From Mobula hypostoma (taxonomy: Eukaryota): 64,000 bases of DNA. Shown in pieces: positions 27,958 to 52,100 of this stretch (within the stretch, counting starts at the first letter, position 1; each line of letters starts with the position of its first letter). The stretch is from assembly GCF_963921235.1 (NCBI RefSeq), contig NW_026948142.1, positions 62,001 through 126,000 on the forward strand, given 5' to 3'. The notes below the pieces were generated by a model. That model saw only the letters and a list, made by a program, of their open reading frames with translations. It did no database searches and was not told where the DNA came from. The position numbers were made by a program, and so were the translations under genes.

Positions 27958-28094
27958 AACCACAAACAAGAGAGAATCTGCAGATGCTGGAAATCCAAGC
28001 AACACACACAAAATGCTGGCAGAACCCAGCAGGCCAGGCAGCGTCTATGGAAAAGTGTACAGTCAATGCTACAGACTGAGACCCTTCGGCAGGA
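27958..28094 (-). mobile_element. Short PLE-terminus unit with degenerate hammerhead
   Basis: Homologous to 4523-4660 (AAAC...CTGCAGATGCTGGAAAT.CAAGCAACACAC...GAGACCCTTCG.CAGGA); core positions are mutated. Confidence 0.75.
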
Positions 28095-28302
28095 GGCATG
28101 CATTCAGGTTTCTGGAAAACTGGGACCTCTTCTGAAGCAGCTGGGACCTGTACAAAAAGGATGAGTTGTACTTGAATCTGAGGGTGACCAGTATTCTTGC
28201 CAGCAGATTTACTAGTGCTTTTGGGAGTAGTTTAAACTAATATGGCAGGGGGATTGGAACCAGGATGATAGAGATGATAGAGCTGAGGATGAAATAGCAG
28301 GT

Positions 28303-28305
<3 letters not shown>

Positions 28306-28349
<44 letters not shown>

Positions 28350-28361
28350 GCACACACACAC
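28306..28361. repeat. (CA)n microsatellite at a CR1 tail
   Basis: About 28 CA/CG units adjoining the (CACAAGA) tail of the CR1 fragment at 28362-28722. Confidence 0.95.
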
Positions 28362-28722
28362 AAGACAAAGGAGCAGAAGTAGGCCATTCAGCCCATCGAG
28401 TCTGCTCCACCACTCCACCAAGAGCTAAATTATTCTCCCATCTAGTTCCAATTTCCTGCTTTTTCCCCATATCCCTTGATACCCTGACTAATTAGATACC
28501 TGTCAATCTCCTCCTTAAACACCCTCAATGATCGGGCCTCCACAGCTGTATGTGGCAACGAATTCCACAAATCCACGACCCTCTGGCTAAAAAAAATTTC
28601 TCCTCATCTCTGTTTTAAATGGGTACCCTCTAGTTCTAAGACTGTGGCCTCTTGTCCTGGACTCACCCATCAAGGGAAACAACCTTTCCACATCTACCCT
28701 GTCCAACCCTTTCAACATTTTA
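28362..28722 (-). mobile_element. CR1 3'-end fragment
   Basis: LKGLDRVDVERLFP...RTRGHSL...RRNFF in ORF 28587-28829. Confidence 0.8.
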
Positions 28723-29392
28723 ACATGTAGATGATGGGTGTAATAGAATGCAAGGAACAGCAAGTCAATGATTGGGTACAAATGCAGACAGAGCAAAGAG
28801 TTAAATTGTACCACAGAGGCAAAATTCAAAGGGTGAAAAATTCAGGACTAAAGGTGCTATATTTTAATGCACGTAGTATTAAAAATAAAGTGGACAAACG
28901 CATGGCACAATTAGAGATTGGTCGGTATGACATTGTGGACATCACAGAGTCATGGCTGAAAGATTGCCATAGTTGGGAGCTTAACATCAAAGGATATACT
29001 TTGAAACAAAAGGACACAGGAAGGCTTGGGTGGTAGCCCGGCTCTGTTAGTAAGAGATGGAATTACATCTTTAGAAAGAGGTGACATAGGGTCAGAGAAT
29101 GTTAAATCTTTGTGGGTGGAGTTAAGAAATTGCAAGGGTGAAAAACCATTATGAGAATCATATAGAGGCCTCCAAATAGTAACCAAGATGTGGGATTCAG
29201 ATTGCAAAGGGAGCTGGAAAAAGCATGTAACAAGGGTAATGACACAATTGTAATGGGGGACTTCAATATGCAAGGGGATTGGGAAAATCCGGTTGGTGTC
29301 GGATTGCAAGAGAGGGAATTTGTTGAATGTCTACGAGGTGGCTTTTTAGAGCAGCTTGTGCTTGAGCCTACTCGGGGAAAGGCTATCTTAGA

Positions 29393-31520
29393 AACATAGA
29401 AACATAGAAACATAGAAAATAGGCGCAGGAGTAGGCCATTCGGCCCTTCGAGCCTGCACCGCCATTTATTATGATCATGGCTGATCATCCAACTCAGAAC
29501 CCTGCACCAGCCTTCCCTCCATACCCCCTGATCCCCGTAGCCACAAGGGCCATATCTAACTCCCTCTTAAATATAGCCAATGAACTGGCCTCAACTGTTT
29601 CCTGTGGCAGAGAATTCCACAGATTCACCACTCTCCGTGTGAAGAAGTTTTTCCTAATCTCGGTCCTAAAAGGCTTCCCCTTTATCCTCAAACTGTGACC
29701 CCTCGTTCTGGACTTCCCCAACATCGGTAACAATCTTCCTGCATCTAGCCTGTCCAATCCCTTTAGGATTTTATACGTTTCAATCAGATCCCCCCTCAAT
29801 CTTCTAAATTCCAACGAGTACAAGCCCAGTTCATCCAGTCTTTCTTCATATGAAAGTCCTGCCATCCCAGGAATCAATCTGGTGAACCTTCTTTGTACTT
29901 CCTCTATGGCAAGGATGTCTTTCCTCAGATTAGGGGACCAAAACTGCACACAATACTCCAGGTGTGGTCTCACCAAGGCCTTGTACAACTGCAGTAGTAC
30001 CTCCCTGCTCCTGTACTCGAATCCTCTCATTATAAATGCCAGCATGCCATTTGCCTTTTTCACCACCTGCTGTACCTGCATGCCCACTTTCAATGACTGG
30101 TGTATAATGTGTTACGAGAATACACATAAAATTAAGATGTTTGCTGGCCTGGGCTAGCATCAGTGGCATCAGCAGTTGGTCTGCCACCTGCCCTCAGGGG
30201 AAGGAGAGATAAGGAACAATGGAGCAGCGTCTGGAGATGTGTAATGAAGGGATGTGGGAGGAAGAGCTGTCTGGAGCGGCTCCCCCCTTTGAACCCTGAA
30301 CTGTTTGAAGTGATGGACAGGCGATACCCCAGCAGGGGGATAAAAAGGGACAGGTTCGCTAAGACAGACACACACGCCACCCGAGGTAACGAGACCCTGG
30401 AAGCGGTGCGCTTCTCACGAGTGGGTGAGAAGTCCCAGACAACGACAAGGGTGGAAAGGTACGATCAGCGGGAACCCGGTGTGTGTCCGCCCTTGCCTGG
30501 GTGCCGGGTTCACTGCAGAGGATCGACCGCATCTGGAGGAGGGGTCACAGTCGGTGACATCACCAAGGATCCGCCCAAAAGCTGTTTGTGAGCCATCTCG
30601 CTGGTCTGTGAGCCATCTTGCTGGTCTGTGAGTGAAGCCGTTCTGAATGATGAGTTGTTCCTATTCTATCTCTCTCTTCCCCCACGTTGTCCACCGCCAT
30701 GGCAACGATTACTGCGAACTGAACTACTAAACTGGACTGAACTTTGAGTCATTTTGAAATTGGTCATTTACCCCTAGACAACGATAGAGCTTGATTGATG
30801 CTGTTATCTTAATTCTGTGCACATGTGTGTTTATCATCACTGAACTGTTGCATTTATTATCCTTTCGATTACTGTGTTGCTTGTTTCTTTAATAAAACTT
30901 TCTTAGTTCTAGTACTCCAGACTCCAACTGAGTGATCCATTTCTGCTGGTTTGGCAACCCAGTTACGGGGTACGTAACAAATGACACCCAGGTCTCGTTG
31001 CATCTCCTCTTTTCCTAATCGGCCACCATTCAGATAATAATCTGTTTTCCTATTTTTGCCACCAAAGTGGATAACTTCACATTTATCCACATTAAATTGC
31101 AACTGCCATGAATTTGCCCACTCACCCAACCTATCCAAGTCACCCTGCATCCTCTTAGCATCTTCCTCACAGCTAACACTGCCGCCCAGCTTCGTGTCAT
31201 CCGCAAACTTGGAAATGCTGCATTTAATTCCCTCATCCAAGTCATTAATATATATTGTAAACAACTGGGGTCCCAGCACTGAGCCTTGTGGTACCCCACT
31301 AGTCACTGCCTGCCATTCTGAAAAGGTCCCGTTTATTCCCACTCTTTGCTTCCTGTCTACTAACCAATTCTCTATCCACATCAATACTTTACCCCCAATA
31401 CCATGTGCTTTAAGTTTGCACACTAATCTCCTGTGTGGGACCTTGTCAAAAGCCTTTTGAAAATCCAAATATACCACATCCACTGGTTCTCCCCTATCTA
31501 CTCTACTAGTTACATCCTCA
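29393..31520 (-). mobile_element. Young CR1 RT 3' half, interrupted by a solo LTR
   Basis: Open RT ORFs 30869-31483 and 29494-30093; (CATAGAAA)n tail; TSD TTAGA (29388-29392 and 31521-31525). Same subfamily as 54897-57686. Confidence 0.92.
30110..30979 (+). mobile_element. Solo LTR (Gypsy-like), family A copy 2
   Basis: Termini TGTTACG...CGTAACA; TSD AATG (30106-30109 and 30980-30983); TATA-like GATAAAA at ~30339; AATAAA at 30891. Confidence 0.9.
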
Positions 31521-33834
31521 TTAGATTGGGTGTTGTGTAATAACCAGATCTTATTAGGGAGCTGAATGTAAAGGAACCATTAGGAGACAGTGATCATAAT
31601 ATGATTGACTTCATCCTGCAATTTGAGAAGGAGAAGCATAACTTACATGTACCTGTATCATAATGGAATAAAGGGAATTATAGTGGCATGAGAGAGGAGC
31701 TAGCCCAGCTGGATTGCAGGGGGATACTGGTGGAGATGACAGCAAACCCAAGATGGCTGAAGTTTCCGGGAATAGTCAGCAAGTTGCAGGATAGATATGT
31801 CCCACAGAGGAAGAAGTTTTCAAACGGCAGAGGTAGGCAACTGTGGCTGATAAAGGAAGTTAAGGACTGCATAAAAGCCAAGGAAAGGGCACATAAGGTA
31901 GCAAAAGTGAGTGGGAACTTGGATGATTGGGAAGCTTTCAAAATCCAGCAAAAGGCAAATAAAAAAGCTATAAGAAGGGAAAAGATGAAATATGGGGGTA
32001 GACTAGCCAATAGTATGAAGCAGGATACCAAAAGTTTTTAGAGTTATATAAAGAATAAAAGGGAGGTGAGAGATGATATTGGACCATTGGAAAATGATGC
32101 AGGAGAGGTAACAATGGGGGACAAAGAAATGACAGATGAAGTTAATGGGTACTTTGCATCTGTCTTCACTGTGGAAGACACCAGCAGTGTACCAGAGGTC
32201 TGTAAGTATCAGGGAGCTAGAGTGAATGCCATTGCTACTGTAAAGGAAAAAGAGCTAGGCAAACTCAAAGGTCCTAAGGTAGATAAATCACATGGACCAG
32301 ATTATCCCAGAGTCCTGAGAGGTTGCTGAAGAGATTGTGGACGCATTGGTCATGATCTTTCAAGAATCACTTGATTCTGGCATGGTCCTGGAGGACTGAA
32401 AGATTGCAAATGACACACCAATCCTTAAGAAGGGACAAAGGCAAAAGAAAGGAAATTATAGGCCAGTTAGCCAAACCTCAGTGGTTAGGAAAATGTTGGA
32501 GTCTATTATTAAGGATGAGATTTTGAGGTACTTGGAGACTAATGATAAAATAAGTTAACATCAGCATGGTTTCTGTAAAGGAAAATCTTGCCTGAAAAAT
32601 CTGTTAGAGTTCTTCAAGGAACTAACAAATAGGGTGGACAAAGGAGAGGCAGTCGATGTCATTTATTTGGATTTTCGAAGGCATTTGTTAAGTTGCCACA
32701 CACGAGGCTGCTTAACAAGATAAAATCCTATGGTGTTACAGGAAAGATACTGGCATGGATAGAGGAATGGCTGACAGGCAGGAGGCAGCGAGTGGGAATA
32801 AAAGGGACCTTTTCTGGTTGGCTGTTGGTGACCAGTCCTGTTCCTCAGGGGTCAGTATTGGGACTGCTGCTTTTCACATTGACAATGAGTTAGATAATGG
32901 AATTGATGGCTTTGTGGCAAAGTTTGGAGATGATACAAAGATATGTGGAGGGGTTGGTAGTGCTGAGGAAGCAATGTGATTGCAGCAGGACTTAAGACAA
33001 ATTGGAACAATGGACAAAAAAGTGGCAGATGGAATACAGTGTCAGAAAATGTATGATAATGCATTTTGGTAAAAGGAACTATAGTGCGGACTATTAGCTA
33101 AATGGGGAGAAGATTCAAACATCAGAGGTGCAGAGGGAGTTAGGAGTCCTCGTGCAAGACTACCAGAAGGTTAATTTACAGGTTGTGTTTGTGGTAATGA
33201 AGACAAATGCAGCATTGGCATTTACTTCATGGGGAATATATTATAAAAGCAAGGAGATAATGCCGAGGTTTTATAAGTTACTAGTCAGGCTGCACTTGGA
33301 GTATTGTCAACAGTTTTGGGTACCACATCTCAGAAAGAATGGGTTATCATTGGAGAGAGTGCAGAGGAGGTTCACATGGATGATTCTGGGAATGATGGGG
33401 TTGACATATGAGGGGCGTTTGGCAGCTTTGGGCTGGCACTCACTGGAATTTAGAAGAATGCGGGGTATTTCATTGAAACCTACTGAATGTTGGATGTGGA
33501 GAGGATGTTTTCTGTGGTGGTGGTACACAGAACTAGAGGACACAGCCTCAAAATTGAGGGACAACCTTTTAGAACACAAGTAAGGAGGAATTTTTTTAGC
33601 CAGAGAGTGGTGAATCTATGGAATGCTCTGCCACAGACTGCGGTGGAGGCCAAGTCCGTGGGTATATTTAAAGTAGAAGTTGATAGATTGCTGATTGGCC
33701 GGGGCATCAAGGGATATGGTGAGAGGGCAGGAGCATGGGGTTGAAAGGAATCTGGGATCAGCCACGTTGAAATGGCACGGCGGATACAATGGGCTGAATG
33801 GCCTAATTCTGCTCCTATGTCTTATGGTCTAAGT

Positions 33835-36027
33835 TAGAAGAAACCCCCAGAGCCAGTGATCACAATATGATTGAGTTCAACTTGAAATTTGATTGGGAGA
33901 AAGTAAAGTCTGATGCAGCAGCATTTCAGTGGAGTAAAGGAAATTACAGTGGTATGAGAGAGGAGTTGGCCAAAGTAAATTGGAAGGAGCTGCTGGCAGG
34001 GATGACAGCAGAGCAACAATGGTGTGTGTTATAGGGGAAAATGGCGATGGTGCAGGATAGATGTATTCCAAAAACAAAGAAATACTCAAATGGCAAAACA
34101 GTACAACCGTGGCTGACAAGGGAGGTCAAAGCTGATGTAAAAGCAAAAGAGAGGGCGTACAACAAAGTAAAAATTAGTGGGAAGACAGAAGATCGAAAGG
34201 ATTTTTAAATCCTACAGAGAGCAACTAAAAGAATCTTTAGGAGGGAAAAGATGAAATATGAAAACAAGATAGCAAACAATATCAAGGCAGATAGCAAAAG
34301 CATTTTCAAGCGTGTGTAAAATAAGAGAGAGATAAGAGTGGATATAGGATCACTAGAAAATGAAGCCAGAGAAATAATAATAGGGGCCAAGGAGATTGTA
34401 GATGAATGAAATGAGTATTTTGCATCAGTCTTCACTGTGGAAGAGACTGGCCATGTGCCAGACGTTGAAGGGTGCGAGGGGAGAGAAGTGAGTGCAGTTA
34501 CTATGATAAGGAAGAAGGTGCTCAAAAAACTGTAAGAGCTGAGGGTACATAAGTCACCAGACCAGATGAAGAGCACCATAGAGCTCTGAAAGAGGTAGCA
34601 GTAGAGATTGTGAAGTTATTGGTAATAATCTTTCAAAAATCATTGGATTCTGGCATGGTGCCAGAGGACTGGAAAATTGCAAATGTCACTTCACTCTTTA
34701 AGAAAGGAGGAAGGCAGCAGAAGGGAAATTATAGACCAGTTAGCCTGACCTCAGTGGTTGGGAAGATCTTGGAGTCAATTGCTAAGGATGAGTTTATGGA
34801 GTACTTGGTGACACAGGACAAGATAGAACAAAGTCAGCATGGTTTCCTTCAGGGAAAATCCTGCCTGACAAACCTGTTGGAATTCTTTGAGGAGATTACA
34901 AGTAGGATAGATAAAGGGGATGCAGTGGATGTTGTACATTTGGCCTTTCAGAAGGTGTCACACGTGAAGCTGCTTACCAAGTTAGAGCCCATGGTATTAC
35001 AAGAAAGTTACTGGCATGGTTAGAGCATTGGTTGATTGGTAGGAGGCAGCAAGTGGGAATAAAAGGATTCTTGTCTGGTTAGCTGCCAGTGACTAGTGGT
35101 GTTCCATAAGAATTGGTTTTGGGACCACTTCTTTTTATGCTGTATATCAATGATCTAGATGATGCAATAGGTAGCTTTGATGCCAGGTTTGCAGATGATA
35201 TGAAGATTGGTGGAGGGGTAGGTAGTGTTGAGAAAACAGGTAGGCTTCAGAAGGACTTAGATTAGGAGAATGGGCAAGAGAGTGACAAATGAAATACAAT
35301 GTTGGAAAATGCATGGTCATGCACTTTGTTAGTAGAAATAAATATGCAGACTATTTTCTAAATGGGGAGAAAATCCAAAAATCTAAGGTGAATCAGAGAT
35401 GCAGAGGGACTTGGGAGTCCTTGTGCAGAACACCCTAAAGCTTAACTGGTAGGATGAGTCGGTGGTGAGGAAGGCAAACACAATGTTAGCATTCATTTCA
35501 AGAGGTCGAGAACACAAGAGCAGCAATGTGATGCTGAAGCCTCACCTTGAGTGTTGTGAACAGTTTGGGGCTCCTCAACTGAGAAAAGATGTGCTGGCAT
35601 TGGAGAGGGTCGAGAGAAGGTTCACAAGGATGATTCCAGGAATGAAAGGTTATCATACAAGAATTTTGATGGCTCTGGATCTGTACTTATTGGAATTTAG
35701 AAGGGTGAGGGGGGAATCACATTGACACCTTTGGAATTTTGAAAGGCCTAGACAGACTTGATGTAGAAAGGACATTTCCCATGATGGGGGAGTCTAGGAC
35801 AAGAGGGCACGGCCTCAGTTTAGAGGAGTGTCCATTTAAAACAGTGATGCAGAAGAATTTCTTTAGTCAGAGGGTGGTGAATTTATGGAACTTGTTACCA
35901 CGGGCAGTGTGGAGGCCAGGTTTTTGGGTATATTTAAGGCAGAGCTTGACAGACTCTTGATCAGACACGACATCAAAGGTTACAGGGAGTGGGGCTGAAG
36001 TGGGGAGATAAGGATCACCCATAATTG
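33835..36027 (+). mobile_element. CR1 ORF2, 5'-truncated and decayed
   Basis: SDHN, PEDWKIANV, QHGF and RGH motifs; tail tcttatatcttgtgg. Confidence 0.85.
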
Positions 36028-37407
36028 AATGGTGGAATAGAATCAATGGGCCAAATGGCCTATTCTGCTCTTATATCTTGTGGTTTTCTCAAGCTTCTAA
36101 TCTCCAGTTTGCCACTGCTCAAAGCATTGGAGACATTAATTTAAGATTAGGGGAAAAAGTTTAATTGATGTGAAGATGAGATTTATTTTGGCAATGAATT
36201 GTGGGTATCTAGAAAGTGCAGCCAGGGAAGATGGTGGAAGCAGATATGAAAGCAACATTTGAGACATTTAGAGAGCAATATGAATGTTCAGGCAATGGCA
36301 AGGTGAAGACCATGTGCAGACAGGTGGGATCAGTGAGACTGGCAGACATGACGGTCCATGTCTATGTTCTAGGATCACAGCTAATGTTTCTAAGAGTCAC
36401 TTTCTTGTATACTCACAAAATCCTTCGATCTCAAAGTAACTGAAATCTCTGCGGCAGCAGTCTATGATCTCCACAGCAGACCACTCCAGGGCCCCTTCAG
36501 CTGAAACTCATGGCTGCCAATAAGTTTTTGGTTTTCTGCCAGAAATTTGTTCTGAACTTTGTAACACATGGCTGCACTGCCCACGAGTTCACATATTTCC
36601 CGGAATCTCTTGGCCAGAGTCCTCCCAGTTGACATTAACATCTTCTCACGGACGTCCAGAGCCCTCCTGCTTCAGGGCTCTCTTCCCTTCCCCTTGTACT
36701 CTTAATTTTCCAAACTCCCAGGGTATTGACAACAATAGCTTAGTTTGCAGATATAAACTGAAACACTCCAGTTTTACATAAAAACATTCCACAACTTTTC
36801 ATATGAATTTTTTCTGACTTACAGCCATGCCTCAACAGTTTTTGCAGGGAGTTTGGGTCCTGCCGGTTGGTTCCAGATGTGGCCAGAACCCTCCTACATA
36901 GTCAGTGGACCAATGTTTCCCCCTCCTGTTCACACAAAGCAGCAGCATCAGCAGTAGTAACAACAAGGCTGAAAACCTCAACCAAGGCAGCCAATTAAAG
37001 CCACATTTGTCTGTCATCAGAAGCTGGAGAAAGCAGGAGTAACGGATTGGTGGGTGCAAAGGAAAGGCAGGGAAAGACCAGCAAGGCTGGAAACAATGGA
37101 GGTGAGCAAAGCGAAGGAGCACTGCAGACTGGCAACGCTGCGAAGGCTGTCCAGGTTACGAAGTCCTGGTGTAAGAGATATTCAGGCGCTCATCAAAGAA
37201 TATCTCAGGTATAGGCAGCTGGGATCAAGCGAACCTTGAGGAATCTCAGGCTTGTAGGAACACACGGAAGATGTTCTGCTGAGTATTATGGGCATGCTAT
37301 GTTGGCACCAGAATGTGTGACCACATGCAGGCTGACCCCAGCACAAATTTGGATCTGTCAGTTGTTATCACAAATGGCACATTTCAAAGTACATGTGAAG
37401 TACATGA

Positions 37408-38036
37408 GGGCAGGAGAAGATGGTGGCACGCCGCGCGTGCGCAGCCCTCCAGTGAAAAATGATATCATATCTGTTAAATAGGGGCTGTGGACAATTCTGA
37501 TCTGATGGAAAGGGACGTGAAAGTACAGCGGAACATCTGGAGAAATTTCTGAAATGCCCGTTAGCTGTTGTCGTTACTGCGCGGTTGGGAATCTTTCGGA
37601 GGATAGGCCTCAAAATCCCCGGCCTTGCCTGCTGTTGGCGACCGAGAAGGAGGTCGAATTGTTCAGATAGAGATGGCACTCAGTACTCGGTGTCAGAGAG
37701 CTGATCAGAGCTCAAAGTTTTCGGATGACTCAAGAGTCGGATTGTGGTTGGCATGGCAGGGAGAGTTTTTCTTCCTTCTCCCGTCTGCGTGAGATGTGGG
37801 ACACTTGAGAGACTTTGAACTTTGCTGTGCTCATGGACTTCTTCATCAAGTTATGGTATCGTTGCACTGTTGTAACTACATGTTATAGTTATGTGGTTTT
37901 GTCAGTTTTTTCAGTCTTGGTCTGTCCTGTGTTTTGAGATATCACACCGGAGGAAATATTGTATCATTTCTTAATGCATGCATTACTAAATGACAATAAA
38001 AGAAGACTACGTATCTTCATAATCTAAAAATAAATC
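37408..38036 (+). mobile_element. Non-coding non-autonomous retroelement (family X, copy 2)
   Basis: Starts GGAGAAGATGGTG, shares blocks with 8447-9128 (GGAACATCTGG.GAAA.TTCTGAAATG; ATGCATGCATT.CTAAATGACAATAAA) and has a 3' hairpin. Flanked by TACAT(G/A)TGAA. Confidence 0.72.
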
Positions 38037-38047
38037 TACATATGAAT

Positions 38048-38309
38048 TGTGTAGGCATGTGGCCAAGTGGTTAAGGCATTGGACTAGTGATCTGAAGGTT
38101 GTGAGTTCGAGCCCCAGCTAAGGGAACATGTTGTGTCCTTGAGCAAGGCATTTAATCACACATTGCTCTGCGACGACAGTGGTGACATGGAGAGGGGAGA
38201 CTTATAGCATGGGCAACTGCTGGTCTTCCATACAACCTTGCCCAGGCCTGCACCCTGGAGAGTGAAGACTTGGTCTTGCAAGACTAACGGATGCCTTTAC
38301 TTACTTACT
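38048..38309 (+). mobile_element. tRNA-derived SINE
   Basis: A box TGGCCAAGTGG, B box GAGTTCGAGCC, core GTGTCCTTGAGCAAGGCA, (TACT)n tail; TSD TACAT(A/G)TGAAT (38037-38047 and 38310-38320). Confidence 0.85.
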
Positions 38310-38404
38310 TACATGTGAATCAGAATTAGGAGGGCAAAATGAGGACTTGAAATGGTTTAGGCAGCATGGTAAAGGAGAATCCAAAGAGATTTGATTAAAA
38401 TAGT

Positions 38405-39570: not shown

Positions 39571-40089
39571 TATTAAGAACAATAGCACCAGAGAGAAAAC
39601 AGGGCCCCTTAAGGAATCAGTGTGGTTGTCCATGTGTGGAGCCACAGGAGATGTGAGGTTTGAAACAAATACTTCACATCTGTTTTTACCGTGGAGAAGG
39701 TCACAAAAGCTCAGGAGCTCAGGGAGGAGACCAGTTATGCCATGTTATGGGGGTATGGGGGGTAATACTGCAGTCCTACATAACATTAAGGTGAACAAAT
39801 CACTGGGGCCTGACCAAGTATATCCCAGGACGGCCAGGAAAGAAACTGCGAGGGTACCAGAGATTCAAGATGCTGTGATGTGGAATGAACTGCCAGAGAA
39901 ACGCAGTGTCAGTGGGGGAATGGACGGGTGACAACTGGGAGGATATATCCTGGCTTTTATTTAAAACTACCTTTGGTTAGTTCAAAGGATGGCCCCAGCC
40001 TTCCCCGCACACTCACTGACAGCCGCACAGAGTCTCACTTGGAGCATTACATGTAAAAGGATTTTTACCGACAATCTGCTCCAGTACCC

Positions 40090-40271
40090 CACTCTTAACT
40101 GATTTTTCCTGCCTTATCATACTTGACTCCTGTATCTTAATTCCATCTTATCTCTCCTGGGCCCTGTTCCTTTCCACCTACATACGAGACATCTCACATT
40201 CTCTCCAAGACTTCAACAGTTTTCAGTTCCCTGCCAGACTGCCTCATTTTCACCATAGACATCCTGTCCCT
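40090..40271 (+). mobile_element. Old PLE RT fragment
   Basis: Decayed similarity to YLD..LSPL...TYVRDTSHAL...FQFP...IFTMD.QSL of the young PLE copies. Confidence 0.5.
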
Positions 40272-43200
40272 AGAAACATAGAAAACCTACAACACAATAC
40301 AGGCCCTTCGGCCTGCAATGCTGTGCCAAACATGTACTTACTTTAGAAATTATCCAGGGTTACCCATAGCCTTGTATTTTTCTAAACCCCATATACGATC
40401 CAAGAGTCTCTTAAAAGACCCTATTGCATTCGCCTCCACCACTGTTGCTGGCAGCCCATTCCACACACTCACCACTCTCTGCATAAAAAACTTACCCCTG
40501 ACATCCCCTCTGTACCTACTTCCAAGCACCTTAAAACTGTGCCCTCTCGTGTTAGCCATTTCACCTCTGGGAAAAAGCCTCTGACTATCCACATGATCAA
40601 TGCCTCTCATCATCTTATACACCTCTATCAGGTCACTTCTCATCCTCCAACTCTCCAAGGAGAAAAGGCCAAGTTCACTCAACCTGTTCTCATAAGGCAT
40701 GCTCCCCAAACCAGACAACATCCCTGTAAATCTCCACTGCACCCTTTCTATGGCTTCCACATCCTTCCTGTAGTGAACTGACCAGAACTGAGCACAGTAC
40801 TCCAAGTAAGGTCTGACCAGGGTCCAAGACAGCTGAAATATTACCTCTCAGCTCTTGAACTCAATCCCACGATTGATGAAGGCCAATGCACTGTATGCCT
40901 TCTTAACCACGGAGTCAACCTGTGCAGCTGCTTTGAGTGTCCTATGGACTGGGACCCCAAGATCCCTCTGATCCTCCACACTGCCAAGAGTCTTACCATT
41001 AATACTATATTCTGTCATCATATTTGACCTACCAAAATAAACCACCTCACACTTATCTGGGTTGAACTCCATCTGCCACTTCTTAACCCAGTTTTGCATC
41101 CTATCAATGTCCCGCTGTAACCTCTAACAGCTCTCCAAACTATCCACAACACCCCCAACCTTTGTGTCATCAGCAAATTTACTAACCCATTCCTCCACCT
41201 CCTCATCCAGGTCATTTATAAAAATCACAAAGAGAATGGGTCCCAGAACAGATCCCTGCAGAACACCACTGGTTACTGATCTCCATGCAGAATATGACCC
41301 ATCTACAACCACTCTTTGCCTTCTGTGGGGCAAGCCAATTCTGGATCCACAATGCTAGGTCCCCTTGTATCCCATGCCTTCTTATTTTCTCAATAAGCCT
41401 TGCATGGGTTACCTTATCCAATGCCTTGCTGAAATCCATATACCCTTCATCTGCTGCTCTACTTTCATCAATGTATTTAGTCACTTCCGCAAGAAATCCA
41501 ACCTGCCTTTCACAAAGCCATGCTGACTATTCCTAATGTTACATAACTGGCAACAATGAATATCAATCAAGATGGGTTATATAAAAACAACCAAACATTT
41601 ATTAAACACGGATAAACAAACAAAAACCTTAACCGGAAGTTAACCCTTATGCAGCCGTTCAACAAATCATCACTTGGCACTGGTTCTGAAAGCGTTAAAT
41701 GCGAAAATTGTTCTTAAAACGGTAAAGTCAGATATAGTTCTTAAAATGGTAAATTCAAAAGTCCAACAGATTTATACGTTCAATTGGGAGAGACTTCTCT
41801 GGAGAAAGATTTCTTCGTAGACACGACTTTCCTGCTGGTTCTGTCCGAAGGATTCACGATGCAGTAAATAAACAGTTTAAAACAACTGACCTTAATTTCT
41901 TTTAGAGAAAGCAAACCTTGCATGAACTCCTTGCTCTTTTGGCAAGAGTTATCTGCGATGCAGGTCACTACTCCTTCAACGAAGACTCAATAAGGTCGAT
42001 CCTTTGTTAAACTGCCGAACGATACTGACCCCTCTCAATCCTTCGGGTCCCGTACTTCGTTAAAGTCTTCACTCTCCCTTCTACTGCTGCTGGAATAAGG
42101 TACATCAACACATCTAGCAAAAATTTCCAGTTCAGTAATATTGTACCTTGCAACAGAACGTAACAACCATTTTAAAAATGAAACTGCGGCATAAAAACAA
42201 ATACGCAACACAAACGGAGACACAGTACGTTCTAGCTGGAAATCTAAAAACTAAAAACTAACTGCGTCATCTGGGGTCTCCCCTTATATACCCGTGGTGC
42301 ACATGTCATCACATGACCTCACATCGGCAGGAAAATTACATCAGGTGACCTCCAAAAGACCATTACATCATTCTCACAAAAAAAATCACAGATCTCCTTG
42401 AGGCATGTAACACTAATCATATTATGCCTCTCCAAATGTTCATAAATCCTGCCTCTTAGGATCTTCTTCATCAACTTACAGACTACTGAAGTTAAGACTC
42501 ACTGGTCTATAATTTCCTGGGCTATCTCTACTCCCTTTCTTGAATAAGGGAACAACATCTGCAACCCTCCAGTCCTCCAGAAACTTTCCCATCTCCGTTG
42601 ATGATGCAAAGATCATTGCCAGAGGATCAGCAATTTCCTTCCTCACCTCCCACAGTAGCCTGGGGTATATCTCATCCGGTCCTGGTGACTTATCCATCTT
42701 GATGCTTTCCAAAAGCTCCAGCACATCCTCTTTCTTAATATCTATACGCTCAAACTTTTCTGTCCGCTGCAAGTCATCCTTACAATCACCAAGATCCTTT
42801 TCCATAGTGAATACTGAAGCAAAGTATTCATTAAGTACCTCTGCTATATCCTCCAGTTCCATACACACTTTTCCACTGTCACACTTGATTGGTCCTGTTC
42901 TCTTAGGTCTTATGCTCTTGCTCTTCACATACTTGTCAAATGCCTTGGGGTTTTCTTTAATCCTACTCGCCAAGGCCTTCTCATGGCCTCTTCATTCTTA
43001 AGCTCCTTCCTCCTAGCCATATATTTTTCTAGATCTCTATCATTACCTAGTTTTTTGAACCTTTTGTAAGCTTTTCATTTCTTCTTGTCTAGATTTTCTA
43101 CAGCCTTAGTACAGACAGTTCCTGTACCCTACCATCCTTTCCCTGTCTCATTGGAATACACCACGCAAATATCCCCTGAACATTTGCCATATTTCTGCCC

Positions 43201-43370
43201 TGAGAACATCTGCTCCCAATTTATGCTTTCAAATTCCTGCCTGATAGCTTCATACTTTCCCTTACTCCAATTAAACATTTTCCTAACTTGTCTGTTCCTA
43301 TCTCTCTCCAACTCTATGGTAATTGAGATAGAATTGTGATCACTATCTTCAAAGTGCTCTCCCACTATCG
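40272..43370 (-). mobile_element. CR1 ORF2, interrupted by a solo LTR
   Basis: ORFs 42476-42973, 41212-41484, 40848-41099 and 40350-40805; (CATAGAAA) tail. Confidence 0.88.
41537..42412 (-). mobile_element. Solo LTR, family B
   Basis: 8-bp inverted termini TGTTACAT...ATGTAACA; TSD CTAA (41533-41536 and 42413-42416). Minus strand has TATATAAGG at ~42282-42290 and AATAAA at ~41598-41603. Confidence 0.85.
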
Positions 43371-43374
43371 ATTC

Positions 43375-43950
43375 TTAACAGATCATTGTTAATGCCTCCG
43401 CAATCTCTCCAGCTACTTCCTTCAGAACCCGAGGGTGCATTCCATGCAGTCTAGGAGATTTATCCACCCTCAGACTACTAAGCTTCCTGAGCACTTTCTC
43501 AGTTGTGATTTTCACTGCACATACTTCACTTCCCTGGCACTCTTGAATGTCTGGTATGCTGCAGATGTCTTCCACTGTGAAGACTGATGCAAAATATGCA
43601 TTCAGTTCCTCTGCCATCTCTGCATCTCTCATTACAATATCTCCAGCGTCATTTTCTATTGGTCCTATATCTACCCTCAACTCTCTTTTACCCTTTATAT
43701 ACTTAAAAATGCGTTTATTATCTTCTTTGATATTAGATGCCAGCTTCCTTTCATAATTCATCTTTTCTTTCCTAATGAGCTCCTTAGTTTCCTTCTGCAA
43801 GTTTTTAAAAGCTTCCCAATCCTCTATTTCCCACTAGCTCTGGCTTCCTTGTATGCCCTCTCTTTTGCTTTTACTGTGGCTCTGACTTCACTTGTCAGCC
43901 ATGGTGGTGTCCTTCTTCCCTTTGAAAATTTTTCCTTATTTGGAATATAG
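43375..43950 (-). mobile_element. CR1 ORF2 internal fragment
   Basis: ORF 43375-43800 is closely similar to ORF 4115-4500. Confidence 0.8.
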
Positions 43951-44029
43951 CTGCCTTTTCAGCAGCTACATGGAAATTACACAGGGAGTGCTCCCCACTA
44001 CATGATTTATAAACAAGCTGGCTTGAGAA

Positions 44030-44143
44030 AAGAATTGATAGATAGTCTCAGTTCAAAACACTGACTGCTAATCCCCTCCATAGATGTTACTTGATGTGCT
44101 GAGTTCCTCCAACATTTTGTGCGTGTTACTCTGGATTTCCAGT
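44030..44143 (+). mobile_element. Degenerate PLE-terminus unit
   Basis: ATAGATG...TGCTGAGTTCCTCCA.CATTTTGTG...GGATTTCCAG matches the unit consensus. Confidence 0.55.
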
Positions 44144-44144
44144 A

Positions 44145-44695
44145 TAGAGTCATACAAAAGTGCAGCACAGAAACAGACTCTTTAGCCACTCTCATCCATG
44201 CCAGACTGTCTACTCCTATTGATCAGCACCAGGACCATAACCCTCCATATCCCTACCACCCATGTACCTATCCAAACTTCTCTTAAACATTGAAATCAAG
44301 CTCACATGCACCACTTGCACAGTCATCTCGTTCCACACTCTCATGACCCTCTGAGTGAAAAAGTTTTCCCTCATGTTCCTCTTAAATTTTTCACCTTTCA
44401 CCCTTAACCCATGACCTCTAGTTGCAATCCCACCCAACCTCAGTGGAACAAAGCTGCTTGCATTTACCCTATCTATACCCCTCACAATGTTGTCTACCTC
44501 TATCAAATCTCCTTTCAGTCTTCTATGTTCCAAGGAATAAAATCCAAACCTATTCAATCTTTCCTTATGACGCAGGTTCTCCAGTCCCAGCAACATACCT
44601 GTGAGTTTTTTCTATACTCTTTTAACCTTATTTACAACTTTCCTGTAGATAGATGACCAAAACTGCACACAATAGTCCAAATTAGGCCTAACCAG
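44145..44695 (-). mobile_element. CR1 3' portion
   Basis: ORF 44216-44596. Confidence 0.8.
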
Positions 44696-44829
44696 CTGGC
44701 CACTGTCCAACTTGTAACCAACTGGCCCTGTGTCTCCTGGTAACTCTGTAAATGAGCATTTGACAGGAAATGACATCATCAGCCATGTCTCAGTGGAAAA
44801 GATGGCATTTGTACAGCTAATCATAAGCA

Positions 44830-44940
44830 TAACAGATTCTGCAGATGCTGGAAATCCAGAATAACATGCACAAAATGCTGGAGGAACTCAGCAGGTCAGG
44901 CAGCATATAATAGTTGACGTTTTGGGGCATCCCTCATCAT
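44830..44940 (-). mobile_element. Degenerate PLE-terminus unit
   Basis: CTGCAGATGCTGGAAATCCAG...AAAATGCTGGAGGAACTCAGCAGG...GTTGACGTTTT..CCTCATCA. Confidence 0.6.
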
Positions 44941-45139
44941 TTGTACAGGCAATGGTTTACACCGGGAGATGAATTTCCTCAGTTCTCTGCCATAATTCAC
45001 ACCTAAATTAATTTGTCAGACGAATGCTGGTAATTTACTAGCAGAGGATTAGTAGGCCAAGTGGCCTTTTCCTGTGTTGTAATTGTTCTGTCATCCTATG
45101 GTTTAATTCCTCTAACATAGTCAATGACTATATAAATTG

Positions 45140-45439
45140 CAAACATGAGGAAATCTGCAGATGCTGGAAATTCAAACAACACACACAAAATGCTGGTGGA
45201 ACGCAGCAGTTCAGACAGCATCTATAGGAAGAGGTACAGTCGACGTTTCGGGCCGAGACCCTTTGTCGGGACTAACTGAAAGAAGGGATAGTAAGAGAGT
45301 CAGGACTAACTGATAAGAAGAGATAGTAAGAGTTTCAGTTAGTCCTGACGAAGGGTCTCGGCCCAAAACGTCAACTGTACCTCTTCCTATAGATGCTGCC
45401 TGACCTGCTGTGTTCCACCAGCATTTTGTGTGTGTTGCT
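45140..45439. mobile_element. Inverted doublet of PLE-terminus/hammerhead units inserted as one piece
   Basis: 15-bp TSD TGACTATATAAATTG (45125-45139 and 45440-45454). Mutated hammerhead motifs at 45238-45273 (-) and 45341-45376 (+). Confidence 0.85.
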
Positions 45440-46484
45440 TGACTATATAAATTGGTTTATTATTGTCACATGTAGCAAGGTACAGTGAAAAACCTATCTT
45501 CCACACTGTTCATACAGATCAGATCATTACACGGCATTGAGCTAGAACAAAGAAAAAACAATAACAGAATGCAGAATAAAGTGCTATAGTTACAGAGAAA
45601 ATGCAGAGCAGGCAGACAATAAGGTACAAAATCACAACAAGGCAGATTGTGAGGTCAACACTCCATCTTATCGTACTAGGGGACTGTTCAGTAGTCTGAT
45701 AACAGCGGGCAGAAGCTGTCCTTGAACCGGGTGGCATATGCTTTTAGGCTCATGGATCTTCTGTCAATGGGGGTGCCTGGGATGGTATGATAACTGTTTT
45801 ACTGAGACACTAAGAAGTGTGGACAGAGAGTATGGAGGAGTGGCTAGTTTCTGTGATGTGCTGAATAGTATCCACAGTTTTCCATATTTCTCCCTGTGCT
45901 GATCACTCCTTCTCTCCAAGATCTCTTCCCCGATCTGCTCTACACAGCTTTCAAGCTTTGATCCCTGTCACCTTGCCACCCACTCCCTACCCATCCTCCA
46001 ACATCTGCTCCCAAGCTCTCCATATCTTTCTCTTTAACAAATCTCCTCAGGACATCAAAAAAGTTTCCAGAAAGAACTAAACTCTGTACTGGCTGCCACT
46101 CCTTGTATCTGAGATGTGATTCATTCGAAGAAAATAATTTCAGAACTGAATTCAGTGCTCCAACACATAATTAATCTCAGAATTAACCTATCACATGCAA
46201 AATATTAATTAAGAACCAGTTGTGGCTGCTCAGCCTGTTTCGTAACTGGTTGCTGTGAGCAGCTATTACAAATTACCTGCTGGGAACAGGCAAACACTGT
46301 TCAGTGCACAACAGCTGGTGCAGGAAAGGTGAGAATTAGTGATTTGTACTGAGGCTGTAGTCCTTCATAAGTAAATACATTTCCAGCTATCATGGAGGAA
46401 ACCTCTCGACACAATATTATGAGGTAATGTTCAGCTTCTTTAGCGCAGTGGGCAAGGTGATGAAAATCCAAAAATGTAAATAGT

Positions 46485-46595
46485 CCTGAAACGTCAACTC
46501 TTCAATCCATAGATTCTGCCTGACCTGCTGAATTCCTCCGGCATTTTGTGAGTGTTACTCAGGATTTTCAATATCAGCAGAATCTCATGTTTGTA
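46485..46595 (+). mobile_element. Degenerate PLE-terminus unit, truncated within the hammerhead
   Basis: CCTGAAACGTCAACT...ATAGATTCTGCCTGACCTGCTG...CAGCAGAATCTCATGTTTG. Confidence 0.6.
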
Positions 46596-47022
46596 AATAG
46601 TCCCTCTTCACCAAGGGCTGGCAGGGTAGAGGTGTGGAGATGGCTCCAATTCAGCAGGGCTAAGACTTATAGGAAACTATGCAGGTATGCTGAGAATTCT
46701 GATTGTTTCATATTGGAGACAGATGTTCCCTATAAAACACTAGGCCTGGTTCTTTCTTCACATACTCTGCCTGATCCACTAAATGTTTACAGCAGTCTAA
46801 ACTTTAATACAATTGAGCTCTTCCACACTGCCCTTGGCTCTAAACTCAGAGGCACCAACCAACCAGACTGCAAAGGGAAACAGAGTAGCATTGTTCTGGA
46901 ACAACATCAGCCAAGGCTTTGGAACGTGAGGGCTCAGTACCAGCCATTCTTCAATTCACTTCAGTTTCAAGTGTAAACAGGACGGGAATTGACATGTTTA
47001 AAACATCATATTGACTTTGTAC

Positions 47023-47220
47023 CACACACGAAATGCTGGAGAAACTCAGCAGATCAGGCAGCATCTATGGAGAGGAATAATCACAAACAAGAGAAAATCT
47101 GCAGATGCTGGAAATCCAAGCAACACACACAAAATGCTGCAGGGACTCAGCAGGCCAAGCAGCATCTATGGAAAAGAGTACAGTCAATGTTTCAGTCCAA
47201 GACCCTTCACCTGGACTGAC
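47023..47220 (-). mobile_element. Two adjacent PLE-terminus units (partial + complete, degenerate hammerhead)
   Basis: 47082-47220 matches 27958-28094; 47023-47080 is a partial older copy. Confidence 0.65.
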
Positions 47221-47284
47221 AAAGGTTAGCAAGTCGTGTCAAGTCAACAACTGTCTGTCAGAATGGTTAGATTTAACTTACAGA

Positions 47285-47704
47285 CTTCTCCATGGATTGT
47301 CACCTTGTCGTGGTGGAGAAGCTTGTGTGGTCCTGTGATCCCCAGAGCAATGCCGTCTGGAGCTATGCTCCTGGTAGGGTCACCCATGGCGGTAAGGTCG
47401 AGGATGAGGTCCCTGACAAAGAACAATCCAACCAAGACCTCAACGGTGGAACAAGTAGACGAAGTTACTTCGAACTCAACGGCTGTGAAGGCGGATGAAG
47501 GCTGCAGCAAATCCATCAGCTCCAATTGTCGTGGTTTCCATGCCATTGGAATCAGTTGGTTGATTTGTGAAGTATGGTGTGCTTCTTGGAGTGCAACATC
47601 AAGTACCTATTAAGCAAATACACGCACAGGTGTCTTCACTCTGTGGGCCACTTCAGAATGAAGACCATCATCCTCGACCTCAAGGGATAGCCACCGGGAC
47701 AACA
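47285..47704 (+). mobile_element. Bipartite non-autonomous RTE derivative (5'UTR + 3' end)
   Basis: 5' CACCTTGTCGTGGTGG...GATCCC..GC.ATG..GGTAGGGTCACCCA resembles RTE (Rex3/BovB) 5'UTRs. The 3' ACCATCATCCT...GGATAGCC matches the RTE end at 12828-12865. TSD AA(C/T)TTACAGA (47275-47284 and 47705-47714). Confidence 0.7.
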
Positions 47705-47946
47705 AATTTACAGAGCGAGGTTGAGAGTGATTTGTAGGATGCGAGAGGCACTGTAGATGATAGGGTGGGGCCACATAGACAAGATTATTGCATCAGTTTG
47801 AGAATGCTGATTTTCTTCGAGTCACATGTCACTAATAGCTGTGAGAGGGAAAGCTTCATGGGGATCAGAGAGGGAGAATTTAGCAGGGATTGTAGGGGTA
47901 AGATATCACAGAGATCAGTGTGGGTCAATTGGCAGGGTTCTAAGCC

Positions 47947-48212
47947 GGAGGAGTTGATGGGGGTCCGAGCGGGAGGATTTGACGGGGGTCCGAGCGGGAG
48001 GATTTGACAGGGGGTCCGAGCGGGAGGATTTGACAGGGGGTCCGAGCGGGAGGATTTGACAGGGGGTCCGAGCGGGAGGACTTGACGGGAGTCCGAGCGG
48101 GGGGATTTGACGGGGGGTCCGAGCGGGAGGATTTGACAGGGGGTCCGAGCGGGAGGATTTGACGGGAGTCCGAGCAGAAGGATTTGACAGGGGGTCCGAG
48201 TAGGAGGACTTG
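47947..48212. repeat. G-rich minisatellite, ~10 x 25-26 bp (GGGGGTCCGAGCGGGAGGATTTGACA)
   Basis: Ten TCCGAG-containing units counted, embedded in a decayed CR1 EN region. Confidence 0.95.
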
Positions 48213-48410
48213 TGGCCATTATAGGGAGATGGTTGCAGTGTGAAGAGGATTGGGAATTAAATATCTAAGATTATCATGTAATACGAAAGGATCGGCAGGA
48301 AGGTAAGGGAGGTGGGGTAGTGCTCTTAAATAAAGATGAGATCAGAGCAATGGTGAGAGGCAATATAAGATCTAAGCAGTAGAATGTTAAATCCATCTGG
48401 GTAGAGATTT

Positions 48411-49125
48411 GACCATAAGACCATTTGGCCCATCAAGTCTGCTCCACCATTCAATCATGGCTAATCATTTTTCTTCTTTTCCTCAACACCATTTCCCGGC
48501 CTTCTCCCCGTAACCTTAGATGCATGTCCAATCAAGAACCTATCAGTCTCTGCCTCAAATACACCCAACAACTTGGCCTCCACAGCTGCATGTGGCAATA
48601 AATTTCACAAATTCACCATCCTTTGGCTAAAGAAATTTCTCCACTTCTCTGTTTTGAAATGACACCCCTCTATCCTGAGGTTGTGTCCTCTTGTCCTAGA
48701 CTCCCCCACCATGGGAAACATCCTTTCCACATCTACTCTGTCCAGGTCTTTCAGCATTCGAAAAGTTTCAATGAGATCCCTCCCTCATCCTTCTAAATTC
48801 CAGCGAGTACAGACCCAGAGCCATCAAACATTCCTCATACACACTTGGAGTATTGTGCTCCGTTCTGGTCACCTCATTACAGGAAGAATGTGGAAACTAT
48901 AGAAGCGGTGCAGAGGAGATTGGGGAGCATACCTTTCAAGAATAGGTTGAGTGAACTTGGCCTTTTCTCCTTGGAGCAATGGAGGATGAGAGTTGACCTG
49001 ATAGAGGTGTACAAGATAATGAGAGGCATTGATCGTGTGGATAGCCAGAGGCTTTTTCCCAGGGCTGAAATGGCTAACACGAGAGGACACAGTTTTAAGT
49101 TGCTTGGAAGTAGGTATAGAGGAGA
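48411..49125. mobile_element. Two CR1 3' fragments (48411-48838 minus; 48840-49125 plus)
   Basis: CCATAAGA tail on the minus fragment; ORF 48845-49144 on the plus fragment. Confidence 0.7.
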
Positions 49126-52100
49126 TAGAACTATAGAACCTTAGAACATTACAGCACAGAAACAGGCCTTTTGGCCCTTCTTGGCAGTACTGAACCATTT
49201 TTCTGCCTAGTCCCACTGACCTGCACCTGGACCATATCCCTCCATACACCGCTCATCCATGTACCTGTCCAAATTTTTCTTAAATGTTAAAAGTGAGCCT
49301 GCATTTACCACTTTATCTGGCAGCTTATTCTACACTCCCACCACTCTCTGTGTGAAGAAGCCCCCTTCCGAATATTCCCTTTAAACTTTCCCCCCCTCAC
49401 CCTTAATCCATGTCCTCTGGTTTTTTTCTCCCCTTGCCTCAGTGGAAAAAGCCTGCTTGCATTCACTCTATCAATACCCATCATAATTTTATATACCTCT
49501 ATCAAATCTCCCCTCATTCTTCTACGCTTCAGGGAATAAAGTCACAACCTATTCAACCTTTCTCTGTAACTCAGTTTCTCAAGTCCCGGCAACATCCTTG
49601 TAAACCTTCTCTGCACTCTTTCAACCTTATTTATATCCTTCCTGTAATTTGGTGACCAAAACTGCACACAATACTACAGATTCGGCCTCACTAATGCCTT
49701 ATGCAACCTCACCATAACATCCCAACTCTTATACTCAATTGATTTATAAAGGCCAATGTACCAAAAGCTCTCTTTACGACCCTATCTACCTGTGACACCA
49801 CTTTTAGGGAATTTTGTATCTGTATTCTCAGATCCTTCTGTTCTACTGCACTCCTCAGTGCCTTACCATTTACCCTGTATGTTCTACCTTTGTTTGTCCT
49901 TCCAAAGTGCAATACCTCACACTTGTCTGTATTAAACTCCATCTGCCATTTTTCAGCCCATTTTTCCAGCCGGTCCAAGTCCCTCTGCAGTCTCTGAAAA
50001 CCTTCCTCACTGTCTACTACACCTCCAATCTTTGTATCATCAGCAAATTTGCTGATCCAATTGACCACATTATCATCCAGATCATTGATATAGATGACAA
50101 ATAACAATGGACCCAGCACTGATCCCTGTGGCACACCACTAGTCATAGGCCTCCACTCAGAGAAGCAATCCTCCACTACCACTCTCTAGCTTCTTCAAAT
50201 GAGCCAATATCTAATCAAATTTACTACCTCCCCAGGTATACCTAGCGACTGAATCTTCCTAACTAACCTCCCATGCGGGACCTTGTCAAAGGCCTTACTG
50301 AAGTCCATGTAGACAACATCCACCGCGTTCCCTTCATCCACTTTCCTGGTAAACTCCTCGAAAAACTCTAATAGATTGATTAAACATAACCTACCCTGCA
50401 CAAAGCCATGTTGACTCTCCTTAATAAGTCCCTGGCTATCCAAAAACTTGTAGACCCTATCTCTTAGTACTCCTTCCAATAATTTACCTAATACCGACGT
50501 CAATCCTACCAGCCTATAATTTCCCGGGTTACTTTTAGAGCCTTTTTAAAATAACGGAACAACATGAGCAGTCCTCCAGCAACTCACCCATAGATACCGA
50601 CATTTTAAATATATCTGCCAGGGCCCCTGCAATTTCAACACTAGTCTCCTTCAAAGTCCGAGGGAATACCCTGTCAGGTCCTGGGGATTTGCCTCAAGAT
50701 AGCAAGCACCTCCTCCTCCTCAATCTGTATAGGTTCCATGACCTCACTACTTATTTGCCTTATTTCCATTGACTCCATGCCAGTTTTCTTAGACAGACGC
50801 AAAAATCCCATTTAAAATTTCCCCCACTTCTTTTGGTTCCATACATAGCCGACCACTCTGATCTTCAAGAGGACCAATTTTATCCCTTATTATCCTTTTG
50901 CTCTTAATATACCTGTAGAAGCTCTTTGGATTATCCTTCACCTTGACTGCCAAAGCAACCTTATGTCTTCTTTTAGCCCTCCTGATTTCTTTCTTAAGTT
51001 TTTTTTTTAACTTTTTATACTCCTCAAACACCTTATTTGCTCCCTGTTTCCTACACATGTCATACATCTCTCTCTTCTCCTTTATCAGAGTTGCAATATC
51101 CCTTGAGAACCAAGATTCCTTATTCTTATTCACTTTGCCTTTAATCCTGACAGGAACATACAAACTCTGCACTCTCAAAAATTCTCCTTTGAAGGCCTCC
51201 CACTTACCAATCACATCCTTGCCAGAGAACAACCTGTCCCAATCCACGCTTTTTAGAACCTTGACGAAGGGTCTCGGCCTGAAACGTCGACTGTACCTCT
51301 TCCTAGAGATGCTGCCTGGCCTGCTGTGTTCACCAGCAACTTTGATGTGTGTTGCTTGAATTTCCAGCAACTGCAGAATTCCTCTTGTTTGCCTTTTTAG
51401 ATCCTTTCTCATTTCTTCAAATTTGGCCTTTTTCCAGTTTAGAACCTCAACCCGAGGACCAGATCTATCTTTATCTATGATCAAGTTGAAACTAATAGTG
51501 TTATGATCACTGGAACCAAAGTGTTCCCCTACACACACTTCTGTCACCTGTCCTAACTCGTATCCTAACAGGAGATCTAATATTGCACCCTCTCTAGCTG
51601 GTACCTCTATATATTGATTCAGAAAACTTTCCTGAACACATTTTACAAACTCTAACCCATCTAGACCTTTATCAGTATGGGAATCCCAATCAATATGTGG
51701 AAAACTAAAAACTAAAATCCCCTACTTTATGTTTCCTGCAGTTGTCTGCTATCTCTCTGCAGATTTGCTCCTCCAATTCTCGCTGACTATTGGGTGGGCT
51801 ATAATACAACCGATTAATGTGGTCATACCTTTCCTGTTTCTCAGCTTCACCCATACGGCTTCAGTGGACAAGCCCTCTAATCTGTCCTGCCTGAGCACTG
51901 CTGTAACATTTTCCCTGACCAGCAATGCTACCCCACCCCCCACCCTTCATTCCTCTGCCTCTATCACATCTGAAACAGCAGAACCCTGGAACATTAAGCT
52001 GCCAGTCCTGCCCCTCCTGCAGCCAAGTTTCACTAATGGCTATAATGTCGTAATTCCATGTGTCAATCCACACCTTCAGCTCATCAACCTTCCCCACAAT

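Follow-up and report, generated by a model that had tools for sequence, protein, structure and literature searches.

The window analysed here, 64,000 nucleotides from the ray Mobula hypostoma (assembly GCF_963921235.1, contig NW_026948142.1, forward-strand positions 62,001 to 126,000), is crowded with LINE (long interspersed nuclear element) fragments and contains two long copies, A and B, of a Penelope-like element (PLE), as well as nine short non-coding units homologous to the 3′ terminus of that element. The original prediction, made from the sequence alone, took the short units for an undescribed family of hammerhead-bearing, retrozyme-like RNA units; what these units are and how they arose is the subject of this analysis. 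The features are listed in Table 1. Positions -1, -2 and so on are counted back from the PLE 3′ end, with -1 corresponding to nucleotide 4523 in copy A.

Table 1. Long PLE copies, hammerhead motif and short terminal units in the window (TSD, duplication of the target site; RT, reverse transcriptase; UTR, untranslated region)
Feature	Position	Strand	TSD	Description
PLE copy A	4523..6438	(-)	4509-4522 / 6439-6452	1.9 kb, 5′-truncated, consistent with Neptune type; RT, Cys linker, GIY-YIG, 3′ UTR, terminus
Minimal type I hammerhead of copy A (predicted)	4620..4657	(-)		5′ arm of helix I at -134..-131, with the core starting at -130
Unit 27964	27961..28094	(-)	not found	short, tailed terminus with 5′ end at -132 and mutated core; another repeat adjoins its 5′ side
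Unit 44030	44036..44145	(+)	not found	decayed short terminus; 5′ end ~-130, 3′ end ~-20
Unit 44817	44817..44940	(-)	11 bp, 44806-44816 / 44938-44948	short terminus; 5′ end -129, internal deletions; 2-nt microhomology with TSD; 8 extra nt at 3′ end
Unit 45141	45140..45298	(-)	15 bp, shared, 45125-45139 / 45440-45454	left arm of inverted pair; -159..-1, tailed
Duplicated segment	45299..45332	(-)	as above	34-35-nt tandem duplication of the -159..-126 segment, centre of inverted pair
Unit 45334	45334..45442	(+)	as above	right arm of inverted pair; -141..-32, tail-less
Unit 46485	46485..46594	(+)	12 bp, 46475-46486 / 46592-46603	short terminus; 5′ end at -113, or at -130 if helix II was lost by deletion between two CCTGA repeats; the final 6 nt of the TSD are those before the core
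Unit 47023	47019..47079	(-)	not found around pair 47019-47220	59-nt terminus; ~-98..-40, tail-less, no hammerhead
Unit 47085	47082..47220	(-)	not found around pair 47019-47220	short terminus; 5′ end -137 to ~-142, tailed, core mutated
Unit 51262	51262..51392	(+)	14 bp, 1 mismatch, 51249-51262 / 51393-51406	young short terminus, 95% identical to A; 5′ end -129; core intact, helix I arm lost
PLE copy B	59529..61444	(-)	own 12 bp, 59518 / 61458, plus a few extra nt	96.7% identity with A; 5′ end and frameshift common to A

The GIY-YIG endonuclease domain of copy A is matched by Pfam at 22.7 bits (cut-off 22.6), with no match in copy B, and RVT_1 matches the PLE below the cut-off (E 1e-5). Over both the RT and endonuclease parts, the element is 55-58% identical to relatives of 750-955 residues, and the closest named proteins are from Mobula (89-94%) and Hypanus (73-86%). 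Copies A and B both have a C-x4-C-x2-C motif upstream of the endonuclease; a Zn-finger-like Cys motif in the RT-endonuclease linker is a trait of Neptune and Nematis elements (PMC8557442; published systems are described throughout from parts of the cited sources, and definitions were also drawn from PMC8969392 and PMC6765202). These features fit a parent that is an endonuclease-containing (EN+) PLE of Neptune type, the choice of Neptune over Nematis resting on the vertebrate host rather than on a tree with reference clades. Copy A sits inside a LINE. The terminus of both long copies contains an intact minimal type I hammerhead on the sense strand, for which cleavage in copy A is predicted between 4625 and 4624 (-103/-102) from the architecture of such motifs in PMC4209133. 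An Rfam scan of the window returned no hammerhead match, and its mir-961 match at 45249-45365 was dismissed as merely the inverted pair of termini.

All nine short units were recovered by BLAST and by a hidden Markov model (HMM) of the terminus at the places where they had been predicted (E 1.6e-14 to 2.5e-40). The HMM finds exactly 11 termini in the window, namely A, B and the nine units, a density of about one terminus per 6 kb; there was no further terminus in the window, the next match having an E of 2.0 and the best match in the reversed-window decoy an E of 0.18. Identity to copy A falls from 95% (unit 51262) to 62% (unit 44030), in keeping with the predicted range from near-identical to heavily decayed. 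The units make up seven independent insertions, four of which are flanked by TSDs of 11-15 bp. At least two insertions with TSDs of 14-15 bp had been claimed; the TSDs at unit 51262 and around the inverted pair are of this size. A flank match of 11 nucleotides arose by chance at 5 of 3000 random sites. The TSDs are 73% A+T, compared with 56% for the window, and the 5′ junction overlaps the TSD by 1-6 nt in all three single TSD-flanked units. Unit 51262 is a clean 130-bp insertion, the LINE paralogue of its site being uninterrupted. At the 3′ side, six of the nine units end at about -1, two at -32 and -40, and the decayed one at about -20.

Two loci contain paired units. Unit 45141, which runs on into the PLE 3′ UTR, and unit 45334 form a 300-bp insert (45140-45439) with their 5′ ends facing, inside one TSD. 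Two units had indeed been predicted here, but their order is inverted rather than tandem. If transcribed, this pair (45172-45442) would fold into a hairpin of about 110 bp, a possible source of small RNA. The only head-to-tail pair in the window is at 47019-47220, where unit 47023 is joined directly to the 3′ end of unit 47085 by a 2-nt overlap and begins 3-5 nt past the predicted cleavage site; the downstream unit has no hammerhead. This junction, a single case, could record a template jump from a cleaved RNA.

The 5′ ends of the nine units lie at -159, -141, -137, -132, -130, -129, -129, -113 (-130 if an internal deletion is assumed) and -98, the boundaries of diverged units having been placed by eye. 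Six of them fall within 13 nt, from -129 to -141 (P=0.008, post hoc, if ends are spread uniformly over 60-160), and every TSD-defined 5′ end lies within -113 to -159. Boundary enrichment, on which the original prediction had staked its case, is thus present within the window. The cluster coincides with the 5′ edge of the hammerhead, and because it is about 30 nt upstream of the cut, ribozyme self-cleavage does not define the short-unit boundary. Relative to the cleavage site, eight of the nine ends are upstream by 10-56 nt and one (unit 47023) is downstream by 3-5 nt, at the junction with another unit. The proposed ribozyme-linked boundary therefore stands as an enrichment near the motif, but not as a product of the ribozyme, into which the ends usually cut. 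No short unit has a complete hammerhead today, and the full motif ever lay within only three of them (45141, 45334 and 47085). The CUGANGA...GAAA core is intact only in unit 51262, where helix I is without its 5′ arm; the term hammerhead-bearing is thus a loose one.

No 5′ end between -60 and -97 was found in the window by the HMM search. Spiked-in 60-nt ends of copy A were detected in 40/40, 35/40 and 12/40 cases at 10, 20 and 30% divergence, respectively; hence any copy that escaped the search would have to be both old and very short. Folding predicts a weak hairpin over about -149 to -119 (z -1.4) and no strong structure in the short units (z -2.4 to +0.5). A branch-point, polypyrimidine and AG sequence at 4655-4680 (minus strand) ends at -137/-133, at helix I of the hammerhead, and is a possible PLE intron acceptor; the Drosophila Penelope intron likewise ends at helix I (PMC4209133). 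Splicing was not taken up as the cause of the 5′ boundary, because in four units sequence upstream of -133 is retained or the 5′ end falls inside the core without an exon-like piece.

With support of 100/98, the youngest unit, 51262, falls together with A and B, whose diagnostic letters it carries. The other units are older variants, 62-86% identical to A. The rest of the terminus tree is poorly supported, and it contains only two long rows for a test of whether the short units form one clade. Within each sequence variant the 5′ ends differ (-159/-141; -132/-137; -113 or -130/-129/-130/-98). This pattern fits successive PLE subfamilies that shed short ends over a long time.

We conclude that the short units are probably dead-end solo 3′ termini, that is, pseudo-long terminal repeat (pLTR) ends, that arose through the reverse transcription of a PLE of Neptune type present in great abundance. 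They are read as solo termini because their homology is limited to the PLE 3′ end, and PLE-type target-primed insertion is favored because of the TSDs, the dichotomy of tailed and tail-less ends and the inverted pair. In this respect the original prediction, which derived the units from the PLE terminus and had them copied by the PLE RT and GIY-YIG endonuclease, finds support. An intact PLE elsewhere would nick AT-rich DNA with its GIY-YIG endonuclease, and its RT would prime within PLE RNA at -1, for a tailed end, or at about -32 to -40, for a tail-less one. The observed 3′ ends match the optional tail of 30-40 nt known from PLEs (PMC11167929; PMC8557442), which in an anole PLE comes from two internal RT starts (PMC11167929). 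Copying would then halt early, by preference at the hammerhead 5′ edge (-129 to -141), and the end would be joined through short microhomology, leaving an 11-15-bp TSD and sometimes an inverted second copy. The units would thus be written into DNA straight from PLE RNA by the PLE RT and GIY-YIG endonuclease, with a boundary independent of ribozyme cleavage, and the resulting short copies would be dead ends.

Two causes of the preferred stop appear about equally likely. RT stalling may occur at about -149 to -119, within the hairpin and the pyrimidine tract. Alternatively, it may prime in the upstream pLTR of the transcript and run off at the RNA 5′ end. Run-off is considered because in the anole PLE priming occurs inside the junction of pLTR and open reading frame, product length tracks the template 5′ end and cleavage is dispensable, and because a promoter lies in the pLTR. 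In vitro, the anole element inserts without need for hammerhead cleavage, and a shorter template 5′ end gives a shorter product (PMC11167929); the Drosophila Penelope promoter is inside the pLTR (PMC2377424).

Several observations weigh against the solo-terminus conclusion. A long member of the older variants is absent from the window, where tblastn finds only A and B, and none of the 11 window termini belongs to a copy of between 160 nt and 1.9 kb. The 5′ ends are far more peaked than exponential truncation would give (coefficient of variation test, P=6e-5 for nine units and 1.5e-4 for the seven independent ones, post hoc). Additionally, in a public sequencing run (X1), the contigs of which were aligned to copy A (86% of sampled words present), depth at the terminus is 41-48% above the extrapolated body trend. 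This excess is an upper bound, because loose contig ends point to other subfamilies with different flanks. A short family amplified separately would produce all of these observations too.

Summed depth in X1 is not copy number, and its 67-nt bins are too coarse for a sharp step. From the terminus, the first four full bins have depths of 13.3M, 9.2M, 7.1M and 4.6M, followed by a plateau at about 4.5-5.2M and a slow fall to 1.2M at 1.9 kb; therefore, intermediate PLE lengths are common. Coding-region contigs only about 82% alike are also present, so other long PLE subfamilies exist. Of the loose ends listed (4164 further rows), 525 contigs at -98 and 595 at -134 show an ordered consensus, which at -134 is G-rich and UTR-like (agreement 0.39). 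The 595 loose ends at -134 were discounted as a genome-wide boundary, as their consensus resembles a variant 3′ UTR and not random flanks. The terminus-to-body ratio is about 10 in run X9, compared with about 3 in X1, but X9 is RNA by guess only and was not used as evidence. Two raw-read runs (X21 and X22) are without the PLE (5 and 0 reads) and have no bearing on the question. Pattern scans of viral contigs for further copies gave 0 and 0; 21 metagenome loci, none matching past 35 nt, were set aside as chance, and one locus in a bacterial metagenome-assembled genome, from a scan of prokaryote genomes, is presumed to be chance as well.

The long copies show a regularity of their own. Their 5′ ends (6438 and 61444) differ by no more than a few bases and correspond to about residue 405-411 in a relative of 904 residues. 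A and B are independent insertions, with different TSDs and different host LINEs, and one frameshift near 5447 is common to both. A Mobula protein 92% identical reaches further upstream, another Mobula protein reads through the frameshift, and a form longer than 1.9 kb at the A/B 5′ end accounts for only about 3% of X1 depth. This pattern suggests a 1.9-kb non-autonomous PLE subfamily, defective but widely amplified, that may be of greater interest than the short units.

The short units could instead be a self-propagating non-autonomous family: solo pLTRs of about 130-140 nt with an internal RNA polymerase II promoter and an RT priming site, transcribed on their own and re-mobilised in trans, and resembling short interspersed nuclear elements (SINEs) without RNA polymerase III (Pol III) boxes. 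With a 5′ end set at the 5′ edge of the hammerhead, they would live off the Neptune PLEs of rays as a non-tandem parasite that does without Pol III, at very high copy number and in several subfamily waves, with no cleavage needed. The clustering of 5′ ends at -129 to -141, the shortness of all six old-variant termini in the window and the X1 excess of short ends agree with such a family, for which the published parts are at hand: the pLTR-internal Penelope promoter (PMC2377424), pLTRs acting in trans (PMC3846280) and non-autonomous PLEs (PMC8557442). However, the 5′ ends vary within each sequence variant, the youngest unit belongs to the long-copy subfamily, and subfamily divergence accounts for part of the X1 depth step. 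Moreover, a solo terminus would be without the RNA past the priming sites that the anole PLE needed (PMC11167929). We therefore regard both the family and its proposed way of life as unlikely. A short-only lineage, if there is one, would link truncated PLEs to retrozymes as an intermediate. A Pol III-driven SINE was rejected: no A box (≤1 mismatch) was found in the nine regions scanned (eight short units, without a separate 47023, plus copy A), and there is a lone B-box-like 9-mer, in unit 44030, which bears out the predicted lack of Pol III boxes.

It is very improbable that the units are relics of longer insertions, later trimmed by deletion or recombination. Three of the seven insertions are without a TSD, like solo pLTRs reported in a rotifer (PMC3846280), and trimming could cover at most these three old units; the other four have TSDs abutting the short unit, and the uninterrupted LINE paralogue marks unit 51262 as an insertion of its present length.

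A true non-LTR retrozyme, in which the transcript of tandem hammerhead units cleaves itself into monomers that circularise and are reinserted through the PLE RT, has still less to recommend it. The units are non-coding and homologous to the PLE pLTR, and an origin from a PLE pLTR and TSDs of more than 4 bp agree with animal retrozymes, for which monomer derivatives and an occurrence in one chondrichthyan genome have been described (bioRxiv 10.64898/2026.07.22.740005; PMC7229834). The start of unit 47023 just past the predicted cleavage site, in the one head-to-tail pair, also points this way. However, no tandem array of the unit, as looked for in the window, was found; there is no circular permutation; and none of the nine hammerheads is complete. 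Among the 15 X1 joints listed (1252 others; counts incomplete), none runs from terminus to terminus (-1 to -134), and the best-supported of those listed has a depth of 314 compared with 13M. The motif is of the minimal PLE type, in contrast to the canonical type in described retrozymes (PMC7229834). With the boundary off the cleavage site and no evidence of short copies breeding short copies, the retrozyme-like RNA unit originally proposed is not borne out. Finally, we give hardly any credence to the clustering being a small-sample or alignment artefact of steep, smooth truncation, since, despite the few independent insertions, the boundaries placed by eye, the poor detection of ends <80 nt at 30% divergence and the coarse X1 bins, 60-nt ends are well detected at 10-20% divergence, yet none falls between -60 and -97, and every TSD-defined end is within the range given above.

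As plain PLE debris, the short units have little import beyond the repeat annotation of ray genomes, and their clustered 5′ ends are the sole part of the feature worth following up. At about one terminus per 6 kb, TSD-defined 5′ ends collected genome-wide would map the in vivo stops of PLE reverse transcription. Such a map could distinguish stalling from run-off and reveal any use of hammerhead-cleaved RNA as a template.

The window has some further features. At 38059-38118, upstream of a repeat common to 53069-53529, Rfam gives a weak tRNA-like match of 25.5 bits, short of its threshold; this is possibly a decayed tRNA-derived SINE head. A minisatellite with a 26-bp unit in 10.5 copies occupies 47943-48212. 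Fragments of other retroelements lie at 13040-13825 (minus strand) and 62168-62728 (plus strand); one has no Pfam match, and the other has an RT match and is presumably RTE-like, going by its general resemblance.

We found no paper on this ray family, although Dfam, Repbase or the chondrichthyan retrozyme tables (bioRxiv 10.64898/2026.07.22.740005) may contain it. An undescribed system, as originally proposed, nevertheless finds no support, since truncated-PLE hammerheads, solo pLTRs, non-autonomous PLEs and PLE-derived animal retrozymes are all in print. Animal non-LTR retrozymes, argued to derive from PLE pLTRs and found in a chondrichthyan with a mean unit of 363 bp, share with the short units a non-coding nature, PLE-pLTR kinship, a type I hammerhead sequence, presumed PLE mobilisation and monomer derivatives (PMC7229834; bioRxiv 10.64898/2026.07.22.740005). 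They differ in consisting of tandem units with at least two consecutive complete hammerheads and in forming circular RNAs, while arrays and complete ribozymes are absent from the short units in the window. The non-autonomous PLEs of Chlamys, such as MRC1, are likewise non-coding and resemble the 3′ end of an autonomous PLE, but they are distinct families that form pLTRs and head-to-tail multimers (PMC8557442); no such independent lineage is seen in the short units here.

The hammerhead itself has close counterparts. Single and opposite-strand minimal hammerheads on truncated metazoan PLEs were described by Cervera & De la Pena (2014; PMC4209133), and these pLTR motifs have the same minimal type I build, with a helix I of 4-5 bp, an unpaired base before helix II and a palindromic helix III. 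They are likewise mostly single and dispersed, with opposite-strand pairs 100-700 bp apart. The available part of that paper names no rays and reports no preferred 5′ ends; here, termini reach the density given above. The short units are similarly matched by 5′-truncated EN+ PLEs and solo pLTRs (PMC8557442, PMC3846280, PMC11167929), with which they share heavy 5′ truncation, an inverted copy, a 30-40-nt tail at one end, AT-rich targets, microhomology joins and TSDs of similar size. The clustering of 5′ ends at the hammerhead 5′ edge has no corresponding histogram in the available parts of these three sources. An inverted pair tailed on one arm only is the very PLE structure of PMC8557442 and PMC3846280, built here from termini alone, with no coding body.

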